Shown piece after piece: positions 1-3,709 of a stretch of DNA of 37,002 nucleotides. Below the pieces are notes generated by a model. That model made no database searches. It was not told the DNA's origin and was given only the letters and a program-made list of their open reading frames with translations. The stretch lies in the IMG/VR virus record IMGVR_UViG_2565956731_000001. The stretch is one strand, 5' to 3'. The translations under genes were made by a program, and so were the position numbers. Within the stretch, counting starts at the first letter, position 1. Each line of letters starts with the position of its first letter. Origin of the DNA: a virus. Its lineage: Duplodnaviria; Heunggongvirae; Uroviricota; Caudoviricetes.

Positions 1-1053
1 TTACGGGGTAATGCCAACCGCTGCCGCCACTTTGTCGCCACTTGGCAGCGTTGCCAGAGGATTGAAACGGAGCGCCGTTTCCAGATGATCCGGTGCCAGA
101 TGTGCGTAACGCATAGTCATTTTTATATCGTGGTGTCCGAGAATTTTTTGTAAGGCCAGAATGTTTCCACCCGACATCATGAAGTGCGCCGCAAACGTAT
201 GGCGCAGAACGTGTGTGAGTTGACCGCGAGGGAGCACGATAGACGTTTTTTCCATCACGGATAAAAATTGAAAATAGCAGTCTGTGAAGAAATTGAACCC
301 ATCAAGCGCCATGATCTCTTCGTAAAGCTCTTTACTGATAGGGATGCTTCTGTTTTTCTTCCCCTTCGTTCTTACAAAGGTAATTCGGTATTTGGTCACC
401 TGTGAACGAGTAAGATTTACGGCTTCTCGCCAGCGTGCGCCTGTGCTTAAGCATATCTTAACTACCAGTGCCAGAATTGGGTCCTGACGTTTGCAATCAG
501 CCAGTAATTCAACAATCTGCTCATGGGTAAGCCATGCCATCTCTTTTTCTGCGATGGTGAATTTTCGCATGTTCTCCAGTGGGTTCGGATACGACCATTC
601 GCCCAGGCGGGATAGTTCGCTAAAAACACTACTTAGATAGCTTTGCTCCAGGTTAATGGTGACCGGGCTTGCTCCTTTCTTCCATTTCTCGCTGAAGTAG
701 ATCTCACCTGTCAGGCGTTTATCTCGATAGTGGGCAAACATTTTAGAGGTTAGATCAGTTGCAAGGGGATTGCCCAGAGCGTCAACCATCAGCAGCAATT
801 TGTCATAGACATGCTGCCCAGCAGTCAGTGATTTACCATGTAGTTTGAACCATAGCTCAACCACGTCTTTCAGTGTTCGACGATCCACTGATTCACCTAG
901 CCAGGGCTTTGCTTCGGTTTCTTCCATCGTGTGACGCTCAAAAGCCAGTGCTTCGCCTTTGGTGGCGAATTGTTTACGCACACGACGCCCACTACGTCCG
1001 GCGGGGTAACATTCGCAAAGCCATTTTCCTGTGGTGAGTTTTCGTACAGCCAT
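1..1053 (-). CDS. int: Tyrosine integrase (P2/186 Int family)
   Basis: Translation aligns by eye with P2 Int from MAVRKL onward (LSTGARW, HVLRHTFA, MRYAH motifs); ATG at 1051-1053 preceded by GGAGGG; the ORF track's upstream extension to 1131 is unlikely. Confidence 0.9.
   Translation of the reverse strand: MAVRKLTTGKWLCECYPAGRSGRRVRKQFATKGEALAFERHTMEETEAKPWLGESVDRRTLKDVVELWFKLHGKSLTAGQHVYDKLLLMVDALGNPLATDLTSKMFAHYRDKRLTGEIYFSEKWKKGASPVTINLEQSYLSSVFSELSRLGEWSYPNPLENMRKFTIAEKEMAWLTHEQIVELLADCKRQDPILALVVKICLSTGARWREAVNLTRSQVTKYRITFVRTKGKKNRSIPISKELYEEIMALDGFNFFTDCYFQFLSVMEKTSIVLPRGQLTHVLRHTFAAHFMMSGGNILALQKILGHHDIKMTMRYAHLAPDHLETALRFNPLATLPSGDKVAAAVGITP
19..41. repeat. Left copy of 22-bp direct repeat CGCTGCCGCCA(C/T)TTTGTCGCCA (candidate att-related sequence), inside the int 3' end
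   Basis: 21/22 identity with 34148-34169, same orientation. Confidence 0.4.
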
Positions 1054-1241
1054 AAAAAATGCCCTCCAATAGAGAGCATTTTTACTGTATGTATAACCAG
1101 TGTCAATGTATGAAATCCTGCGACCATACATCTCACTGAAGCCATAATGAAGTAGGCTATTCTTTTTGCTATGTGATCATGTAACTTTTGCGGTTAACCT
1201 GTGGCTCATTTTTATTTTAGGCGCAGATATAAAAGCAAAAG

Positions 1242-1433
1242 TTATCGTGAGTTTTTAGTACAGATTTTTTTGGATTTACTAATAGTTCCATCATTGCAAA
1301 CGAATTTGCCATCAGAGGTACAGTGAGAAACACCTCCCTTTTTCCCTGAGCAGGGATAATTTCTAGCATAGGTAGCTAGTGGGTTTAATAACAAAGAACA
1401 TGACAAAACCACAAAAAATACCTTACCAAGCAT
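1242..1433 (-). CDS. Small secreted Cys-rich protein (signal peptide plus ~40-aa mature part), cargo/moron gene
   Basis: 63-aa ORF with hydrophobic N-terminal signal sequence and 5 Cys; strong RBS GGGAGGA 4 nt before ATG; starts 15 bp after cI stop; AT-rich by eye. Confidence 0.55.
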
Positions 1434-1448
1434 AATTTCCTCCCGGTA

Positions 1449-2018
1449 CTATTTAACATACTTGACTGTTAAACTTATAATTTTACCAATTATTTCAATG
1501 TCTTCTATCTTACATTCAAAGGCTCTGTTTCCACCCTCGACGAAGATTCTTCCACCGGGTAAACGAGTAATGTCACGGATCGTTATTTCGCCATCAATAC
1601 TTATTACCCATTTACCATCACGTATATCATCAAATTCCTTATCACAAATAAATTCAGAATTATTATCTGTGATTACAAAAAGATTCTTGAATGCCGACGG
1701 TAGAAATTCTCTATCGAAAATATAAAAACCGTCTTCACACAAGGCCCCATCAGATAATACATATTTAGCAACTTCCATAGTATTTGTATTACCTGAAGTT
1801 TGCTTTGAACCATGCCCGGTTGTGAGCCAATTAAGCGAGGTGCCTGTTTCAAGGGCGCACTGGATTACCCATTCTGCTGGGAATGAGTCACGCATGTAGC
1901 GTGTGGCGAGTGTACTTTTAGAGATTCCTAAATGATCGCACAACGCCTGTCGAGTCTTGAATCCATAAGCTTCTACCATGCGCTCTATGGCGCCTCGTCC
2001 GCCTTTCTCCAAATTCAT
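1449..2018 (-). CDS. cI: 186-type CI immunity repressor
   Basis: About 190 aa with N-terminal HTH region and C-terminal domain resembling 186 CI; position between int and apl; ATG at 2016-2018 with GGAG 5 nt upstream (alternative GTG at 2022-2024). Confidence 0.8.
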   Translation of the reverse strand: MNLEKGGRGAIERMVEAYGFKTRQALCDHLGISKSTLATRYMRDSFPAEWVIQCALETGTSLNWLTTGHGSKQTSGNTNTMEVAKYVLSDGALCEDGFYIFDREFLPSAFKNLFVITDNNSEFICDKEFDDIRDGKWVISIDGEITIRDITRLPGGRIFVEGGNRAFECKIEDIEIIGKIISLTVKYVK

Positions 2019-2028
2019 GGTCACTCCA

Positions 2029-3420: not shown

Positions 3421-3487
3421 CCAACTAATGAAATTAATGGCGTAAACCCGCCGGGCATCCCTTTATCTAAATTCAGGAGAATTGATT

Positions 3488-3709
3488 ATGCGTAATATTG
3501 AAACCCTCTCGACCAAAACCGGACCGGATGACGCAGGGCTTAATATTTTACTGACAGAGGCTCGTCTGGAAGAACGCCGGGCAAGGGCTGAAGCAATGGC
3601 AGCTCGCCTTGATAGCCTGGCGTGTCATATCACATCCCGCCAGCTAACCCACGTCGAAGCGGCAGAACTGCTTCGTGTGACTGCTGAAGCAATCCAGAAC
3701 GAAGCGTAG
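3488..3709 (+). CDS. Small phage protein (P2 orf80-like)
   Basis: ATG 3488 with AGGAG 8 nt upstream; conserved position in P2-like early operons. Confidence 0.5.
   Translation: MRNIETLSTKTGPDDAGLNILLTEARLEERRARAEAMAARLDSLACHITSRQLTHVEAAELLRVTAEAIQNEA

Follow-up and report, generated by a model that had tools for sequence, protein, structure and literature searches.

A YdcA-family gene between the repressor and integrase genes of a tailed phage

We consider here a short open reading frame (ORF) at positions 1242–1433, minus strand, of a 37,002-nucleotide stretch of DNA from a tailed phage of the class Caudoviricetes (IMG/VR record IMGVR_UViG_2565956731_000001; hereafter, the window), which a preliminary description had presented as a small secreted cysteine-rich protein cotranscribed with the cI repressor gene and as a lysogenic-conversion moron. 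The ORF is a genuine, strongly conserved protein-coding gene of the YdcA family, and its linkage to cI is tight across genera. As to the role of the gene, we favor, with moderate confidence, a composite reading, in which the lysogen makes a periplasmic YdcA-type binding mini-domain that acts in exclusion in the manner of the Glo protein of the Vibrio phage K139. Most of this confidence lies in the identity, localization, and operon membership of the protein; the exclusion function, taken alone and proposed by analogy, is put forward only tentatively.

The ORF downstream of cI as a gene of the YdcA family

The coding sequence is in the ORF list, starts with ATG, and comprises, as had been described, 63 codons; the TAA stop codon is at 1242–1244. 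Directly upstream and in the same orientation lies the gene of a 186-type CI repressor (1449–2024, minus strand; Pfam Phage_CI_repr, E = 2.8e-33, and Phage_CI_C, E = 2.7e-27), whose product is 33% identical to CI of phage 186 and whose TAG stop codon at 1449–1451 is followed by a 15-nt spacer (TACCGGGAGGAAATT, 1434–1448) and then by the ATG of the ydcA-like ORF. The spacer contains a Shine–Dalgarno sequence, GGGAGG at 1439–1444, placed 5 nt before the ATG, and thus both the 15-bp distance and the near-consensus ribosome-binding site of the preliminary description are confirmed.

A database search for the small protein assigned it to the YdcA family. It scores 114.6 bits against the NCBIfam model NF007463, above the cut-off of 93, matches PHROG 6000 with E = 3e-34, and is assigned to Pfam PF27300 (“YdcA”) in the precomputed annotation of an identical protein (P0001); the direct Pfam scan of the ORF, with models that did not include PF27300, yielded no significant match. 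All invariant columns of two homologue alignments, A1 and A3 (P-C-S...GG...C...F-x-C...G..S-x-S...C), are present in the window protein. An exhaustive profile search at E ≤ 1e-3 produced 451 representative clusters, mostly of 55–110 aa, distributed across Proteobacteria; the NCBIfam models for the family are NF007462, NF007463, and NF007464. The sequence identical to the window protein heads a cluster of 355 members and occurs on at least 1,000 contigs; the UniRef name of this cluster, “Conjugal transfer protein,” finds no support at the examined loci and was taken as annotation noise.

That the ORF is a real gene rather than a chance reading frame is borne out by the score against the curated hidden Markov model (HMM), by purifying selection, and by its occurrence in sequenced genomes. 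The segment 1054–1448 is present at 93–100% identity in 590 out of 5,426 complete Escherichia coli genomes, with a coding sequence annotated beneath all 36 full-length matches listed; RefSeq labels the equivalent coding sequence “YdcA family protein” or “hypothetical protein.” Among the carriers is the E. coli (DE3) laboratory strain Nico21(DE3), with 96.9% identity in this region. The gene (98% protein identity) is also present in two E. coli records of about 55 kb deposited as plasmids, NZ_CP148400.1 and NZ_CP148585.1, which could be an episomal or mis-binned 186-like phage.

Nei–Gojobori comparisons of the mature core show that the rate of non-synonymous substitutions (dN) is far below that of synonymous ones (dS). 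Relative to the 93%-identical UMNK88 allele, there are eight synonymous and no non-synonymous differences (32 codons), and the proportion of synonymous differences (pS) is 0.75–0.96, at a proportion of non-synonymous ones (pN) of only 0.02–0.06, when the alleles compared come from a second E. coli lineage, Klebsiella, Hafnia, Yersinia, and Enterobacter. The signal peptides of the prophage alleles are almost unrelated and the mature domains nearly identical, as is to be expected when the leader is cleaved off and the secreted domain is under constraint. Between the prophage ydcA alleles, synonymous differences reach a proportion of 0.85–1.0, above the value of about 0.75 expected at full saturation; this excess suggests systematically different codon choice between lineages, with the peptide unchanged.

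The predicted signal peptide (residues 1–23; 1365–1433, minus strand) consists of the short charged segment MLGK and a hydrophobic core, and ends with TYA, after which signal peptidase I is predicted to cut. It is hydrophobic in all homologues, with variable sequence, and the alanine at position –1 is invariant across 25 aligned homologues whose signal peptides are otherwise freely divergent; this layout and this conservation support the export signal that had been proposed. The mature peptide (residues 24–63; 1245–1364, minus strand) is indeed 40 aa long. It had been credited with five cysteines; four of them, C28, C38, C46, and C58, belong to the mature peptide and are invariant in the family, and these, together with a conserved core motif, are seen in both alignments, whereas the fifth, C12, lies inside the signal peptide and is not conserved. 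A test for a bacterial lipoprotein was negative, as C12 (in VLSC) is only 11 residues from the start and is missing in most homologues. The mature peptide is strongly basic, with nine lysines and arginines versus two aspartates, and its core is modeled by AlphaFold2 with pLDDT of 80–88.

A scan of the minus strand between cI and the ydcA-like ORF found neither promoter-like nor terminator-like sites. On the opposite, plus strand of the cI/ydcA junction, at 1453–1481, there is a sigma-70-like site (TTAACA, 17 nt, TATAAT; 11 matches out of 12) directed antisense into cI; it may be a chance occurrence in AT-rich DNA. The AT-rich patch that had been noted between cI and int is real, with GC content of 0.31–0.37 over approximately 1100–1800 compared to 0.45–0.55 in the flanks, yet it is not confined to the ORF and also spans the 3' half of cI.

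A known relative is YdcA of E. coli K-12 (b1419, 57 aa), to which the window protein is 57% identical; in both, a Sec signal peptide precedes a core of about 35 aa that contains four cysteines and the motif PCSGxKGG..HC...F.CNDGS.S.SKK.C. Nevertheless, it scores only 68.5 bits against the K-12 equivalog model NF007462, below the cut-off of 118, and hence falls into a paralogous subfamily. Moreover, K-12 ydcA stands alone on the chromosome between rydC and hokB, whereas the window gene is prophage-borne and linked to cI. Thus, judged by its sequence, the window gene is a paralogue and not an orthologue of K-12 ydcA. In published descriptions, K-12 YdcA figures as no more than a small protein with a signal peptide and a predicted periplasmic location. 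The genes named ydcA in Bacillus and in the gonococcal genetic island were judged unrelated, having only the name in common, and a match to “Pseudomonas phage Y12” was not used, the record being unverified and unannotated and the ORFs of the region resembling host chromosome.

Linkage to the repressor gene and the cI–int slot

The order cI, ydcA, optional cargo, int is found in 186-like prophages of E. coli (two alleles), Klebsiella, Hafnia, Yersinia, and Enterobacter, and at every enterobacterial locus looked up ydcA is the first gene after the 186-type cI and has the same orientation as cI. From locus to locus, the alleles of cI and int vary widely; the mature core of YdcA shows no such variation. 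The 80 loci kept from the IMG/VR scan with A1 are all copies at 98–100% identity and give no view of distant contexts; a second scan, with the protein of the Haemophilus phage HP2, was informative. In HP2/S2, a 59-aa homologue, unannotated, lies directly after cI and before orf1(S) (HP2, NC_003315, 2944–3126; contig L001). Similarly, the Acinetobacter phage Ab11510-phi (L013, approximately 3423–3599) contains a complete YdcA-family ORF, with a signal peptide and the core, that is unannotated in the deposited record. In 16 HP2-like IMG/VR contigs, ydcA starts at most 3 nt from the end of the upstream CI-type ORF or overlaps it, which suggests translational coupling.

According to the preliminary description, phages P2 and 186 have no gene at this place, and this holds: in 186, with the lysogenic operon pL/pE–cI–int–orf69, cI and int overlap with no gene between them, and in P2 the gap is 115 bp and gene-free. 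The gene was further described as a moron. Its absence from 186 and P2 agrees with accessory status; on the other hand, its position after cI recurs in 186-like prophages from five or more genera of enterobacteria, as well as in Haemophilus HP2, and it is thus accessory, yet not a sporadic moron. Such tight cI–ydcA linkage across genera was not found in the literature searched.

The borders of the module can be traced by comparison of partial matches. The 60 nt at 1054–1113 travel with int and are also found in prophages that lack the ydcA module or have other immunity regions, placing a module boundary near 1113, and the segment of approximately 1114–1448, being missing from matches with int-proximal sequence only, appears to be part of the cI–ydcA module. 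In the E. coli Sx181-0-1 prophage, whose immunity region is 90% identical, ydcA is replaced by a CI-like gene and a gene of a KAP NTPase. The CI-like protein (307 aa; L003, 1568–2491), encoded just after the true cI, matches the N-terminal helix-turn-helix (HTH) region of cI twice (residues 23–93 and 122–302) and appears to be a tandem-HTH CI paralogue.

A comparable arrangement is annotated in the Vibrio phage K139, the record of which has the order PL–cI–orf2–glo–int and describes Glo as “periplasmic protein; involved in phage exclusion”; Glo has been cited as the one soluble periplasmic superinfection-exclusion protein (PMC3952083). Four Yersinia-type contigs (L154, L156, L158, L160) have the order K139 orf2 homologue, ydcA, int (30% identity of the Orf2 proteins, E = 4e-41, in L156, where a 203-aa cI precedes the orf2 homologue), and thus ydcA occupies the slot of glo. 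Both genes belong to a lysogenic operon of P2-family phages, between cI and int, and both products have a signal peptide and no membrane anchor. The equivalence of ydcA with the glo slot was not found in the literature searched.

The same slot holds defense cargo. A KAP P-loop NTPase gene is adjacent to ydcA in sister prophages (L004/L019, 5198–6529 and 4198–5529) and stands in the place of ydcA in the Sx181-0-1 prophage (L003, 25–1542), and the KAP NTPases of the cI–int slot match PDC-S20, a candidate defense system in PADLOC, with E = 1e-171 (the protein encoded beside ydcA) and 7e-78; they also show a more remote similarity to PifA. Cargo of the repressor–integrase slot of P2-family prophages has been described as defense hotspots (PMC9122126; PMC13586616), in K139-like phages in particular (Rousset et al., 2022; PMC9122126). 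While ydcA shares this variable slot with the hotspot cargo, it does not vary as such cargo does: in one genus after another, the same gene recurs although the neighboring cI and int alleles are divergent.

Downstream of ydcA, the lysogenic operon ends with the tyrosine integrase gene int (1–1053, minus strand; Pfam Int_N and Phage_integrase), whose ATG is at 1053 and whose stop codon ends at position 1 of the window; the equivalent place in RefSeq is annotated as a 350-aa integrase. The plus strand of the immunity region carries an ORF at the apl/cox position and a CII (CP76) gene.

The non-coding spacer between ydcA and int is strongly structured (RNA fold of 1040–1245, z = –4.8). Its part from the ydcA stop codon to the int-proximal hairpin (1084–1241, minus strand), with a long hairpin right after the stop codon and a second hairpin, is conserved in five alleles; no covariation was seen in the int-upstream hairpins among these five alleles, which are too similar for that. 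The int-proximal element (1054–1083, minus strand), AAAAAUGCUCUC-UAUUG-GAGGGCAUUUUUU, is a 13-bp hairpin followed by a U-run and reaching the ATG of int, with the int Shine–Dalgarno sequence GGAGGG in its 3' arm. It could act as a terminator of the cI–ydcA transcript, as an occluder of the int ribosome-binding site in read-through RNA, or in both ways. A promoter-like site on the minus strand at 1078–1106 (–35 TTGACA at 1106–1101, 17 nt, –10 AAAAAT at 1083–1078; 10 matches out of 12) overlaps with its –10 element the 5' arm of this hairpin, so that a transcript starting from it would lack the 5' arm and leave the int ribosome-binding site free. An Rfam search of 900–2300 found nothing credible.

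Domain fusions, structural relatives, and partner genes

Among the best 149 family representatives, the only enzymatic domains fused to the signal peptide and the YdcA domain are three unrelated folds of secreted nucleases, with the YdcA domain at the N-terminus: SNase (P0108), Endonuclease_NS (P0144, P0172, P0190), and PLD/Nuc (P0160). Such fusions were not found in the literature searched. Tandem forms with two and three YdcA copies also exist, and in contig L131 a secreted SNase gene (2006–2683) is located 25 nt upstream of ydcA. Taken together, the fusions, the neighbors, the repeats, and the charge suggest a small binding module, whose ligand would be a conserved polymeric or polyanionic one, that is, nucleic acid or a component proximal to the outer membrane or peptidoglycan. 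The versions from Burkholderiales and Pseudomonas have an additional C-terminal cysteine domain resembling PBCV_basic_adap.

The nearest candidate for a structural relative is Dis2 of Legionella (Lpg0823; PDB 7MUD), which is the best Protein Data Bank (PDB) match by profile (E = 1.7e-4; only weak, E = 0.0077, once the signal peptide is left out). Foldseek against the PDB also ranks it first, though with a weak match of 37 columns at 38% identity. Both lobes of Dis2 have in common with the YdcA core the motif C-S-K-x-GG-I-x-x-C...VCN(D/N)G..S, and Dis2 is likewise periplasmic and disulfide-stabilized. It differs in having two lobes and five disulfides and in being a subunit of a type IVB secretion system, compared to the single lobe and four cysteines of the window protein, encoded in a prophage lysogeny module. 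Dis2 docks under the outer membrane on DotK, DotC, and DotD, and is dispensable. Plant proteinase inhibitors and LDL-receptor class A repeats, also returned by the PDB profile search (E = 0.01–5), were judged to share the cysteine spacing and not homology.

The search for a universal partner gene of ydcA yielded a membrane-anchored partner in Moraxellaceae only. There, on the chromosome of M. bovoculi, in Mcat phages, and on mobilizable plasmids of 3.9–5.4 kb, ydcA is followed by a gene of a homologous membrane-anchored protein of 212–319 aa (cassettes at L008/L009, 5001–5884; L012, 3438–4264; L014, 728–1697; L015, 1281–2440), which matched no Pfam family. This layout of ydcA and a membrane-protein gene is reminiscent of exclusion pairs or of toxin/immunity pairs. 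The gene that follows in HP2, orf1(S), encodes a protein with a signal peptide and an OB-fold “tRNA_anti-like” domain; this protein, DUF4236, and the KAP NTPase are unrelated to the Moraxellaceae partner and to one another. None of the partner genes from Moraxellaceae, siphoviruses, or Mu-like phages is present in the window.

Possible role in the lysogen

In the composite reading, the lysogen probably transcribes the gene together with cI from the lysogenic promoter, as suggested by the layout and by the precedents of 186 and K139, and its own strong ribosome-binding site probably directs its translation. The product is probably exported by Sec, cleaved after TYA, and oxidized in the periplasm to give a 40-residue, two-disulfide, strongly cationic mini-domain. 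On the periplasmic face of the envelope, this mini-domain might bind a conserved ligand that is polymeric or polyanionic, such as incoming DNA or a component close to the outer membrane or peptidoglycan; and, soluble in the periplasm and produced constitutively along with the repressor, it might hinder the entry of foreign DNA or of a superinfecting phage, in the manner of Glo. We treat lysogenic conversion by the window gene as a working hypothesis.

A more specific version, which we consider unlikely, is that in the YdcA domain we have a hitherto unrecognized mini-fold that binds nucleic acid, or targets nucleases, in the periplasm, and that temperate phages express a free copy of it with the repressor to capture or block foreign DNA there. 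If true, it would mean a new soluble mechanism of exclusion in superinfection, transformation, or conjugation, and would provide a function for E. coli YdcA and Legionella Dis2.

Several observations weigh against the exclusion role. The DNA of tailed phages and conjugative DNA are not normally exposed in the periplasm, and exclusion by DNA binding needs an extra assumption. Glo is a protein of 137 aa with no homology to YdcA: homology between the two was rejected, since hhalign gave a probability of 3.9% and aligned the signal peptide alone, and the analogy is therefore one of position and predicted compartment only. The PADLOC models gave no match to the YdcA-like protein at E ≤ 0.01. The context of the gene is quite different in small plasmids, Mu-like phages, and siphoviruses; in Acinetobacter siphoviruses, for example, it is flanked by an HTH gene and a DUF4236 gene, and in Mu-like contigs by rdgC and gemA. 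Finally, the literature ties the chromosomal paralogue to stress physiology and not to phage exclusion: loss of ydcA renders E. coli W sensitive to 3-hydroxypropionate (3-HP), ydcA is reported to be acid-induced via YdcI (PMC7642389), and the rydC–ydcA spacer is in the list of constitutive promoters of the stationary-phase sigma factor.

These last data equally underlie the main rival explanation, that the gene is an envelope or stress fitness factor, and thus a true lysogenic-conversion gene, stabilizing or modifying the envelope under acid, organic-acid, or stationary-phase stress like chromosomal YdcA, and so serving the fitness of the host instead of blocking phages. The 57% identity to K-12 YdcA, with the whole motif in common, fits this explanation, as does the fact that Dis2 is an outer-membrane-proximal accessory subunit and not a DNA-handling protein. 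We nevertheless regard it as doubtful: K-12 has ydcA on its chromosome, and in hosts with such a copy little would be gained from another that is 57% identical, except through dosage or timing; the gene is found in the company of defense cargo in a defense hotspot; and the nuclease fusions are left unexplained.

The fusions to SNase, Endonuclease_NS, and PLD/Nuc domains are instead the starting point of another explanation, a periplasmic DNA-binding or nuclease-associated module that blocks uptake of DNA (transformation, nutrient DNA) and so guards the prophage from recombinational replacement. Haemophilus, Moraxella, and Acinetobacter are naturally competent genera, and many phage hosts with the gene belong to such genera. 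The secreted SNase gene 25 nt upstream of ydcA in L131, the OB-fold protein encoded next to the gene in HP2, and the high positive charge of the mature peptide point in the same direction, and there are known cases of mobile elements whose periplasmic nucleases prevent transformation (PMC12378983). Still, the window protein has neither a nuclease domain nor a nuclease neighbor, no known DNA-binding fold was detected in the YdcA domain, and the small fused domain is equally explicable as an envelope anchor; moreover, the gene is very common in E. coli, although this species is not naturally transformable under ordinary conditions. This explanation seems to us distinctly improbable.

The product could also be a secreted cationic antimicrobial, bacteriocin-like peptide, freed by lysis or in vesicles, with the adjacent membrane protein providing immunity. 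The membrane-anchored partner always next to ydcA in Moraxellaceae gives a layout like that of colicin or bacteriocin cassettes, and the peptide is small, cationic, and disulfide-stabilized. However, 1054–1241 of the window has no coding sequence, none of the enterobacterial loci examined has the partner, K-12 ydcA stands alone with no annotated immunity gene, Sec export by itself stops in the periplasm, and the core is near-identical across genera, whereas toxin–immunity pairs tend to diversify, making this explanation very unlikely indeed.

Lastly, the notion of a spurious ORF in an AT-rich spacer, with conservation due to an RNA or DNA element regulating int, could appeal to the strongly structured neighboring spacer and to the ease with which short ORFs arise in AT-rich DNA, but it is ruled out for practical purposes by the score above the curated HMM cut-off, the homologue alignment with its freely diverging signal peptide and preserved mature domain, the breadth of the family, and purifying selection seen codon by codon (saturated synonymous sites at low pN), and Rfam offers no such element.

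The sequence, the family, and this kind of arrangement are already on record. What makes the gene experimentally approachable is its linkage to cI, its equivalence with the glo slot, and the fusions to secreted nucleases. It is carried by approximately one in nine complete E. coli genomes and, by its position, is probably constitutive in lysogens. If it is merely a fitness moron, the finding is an ordinary one; if it is an exclusion factor, it would be among the smallest known, and would give the first functional handle on the 451 clusters of the YdcA family and on the lobes of Dis2.

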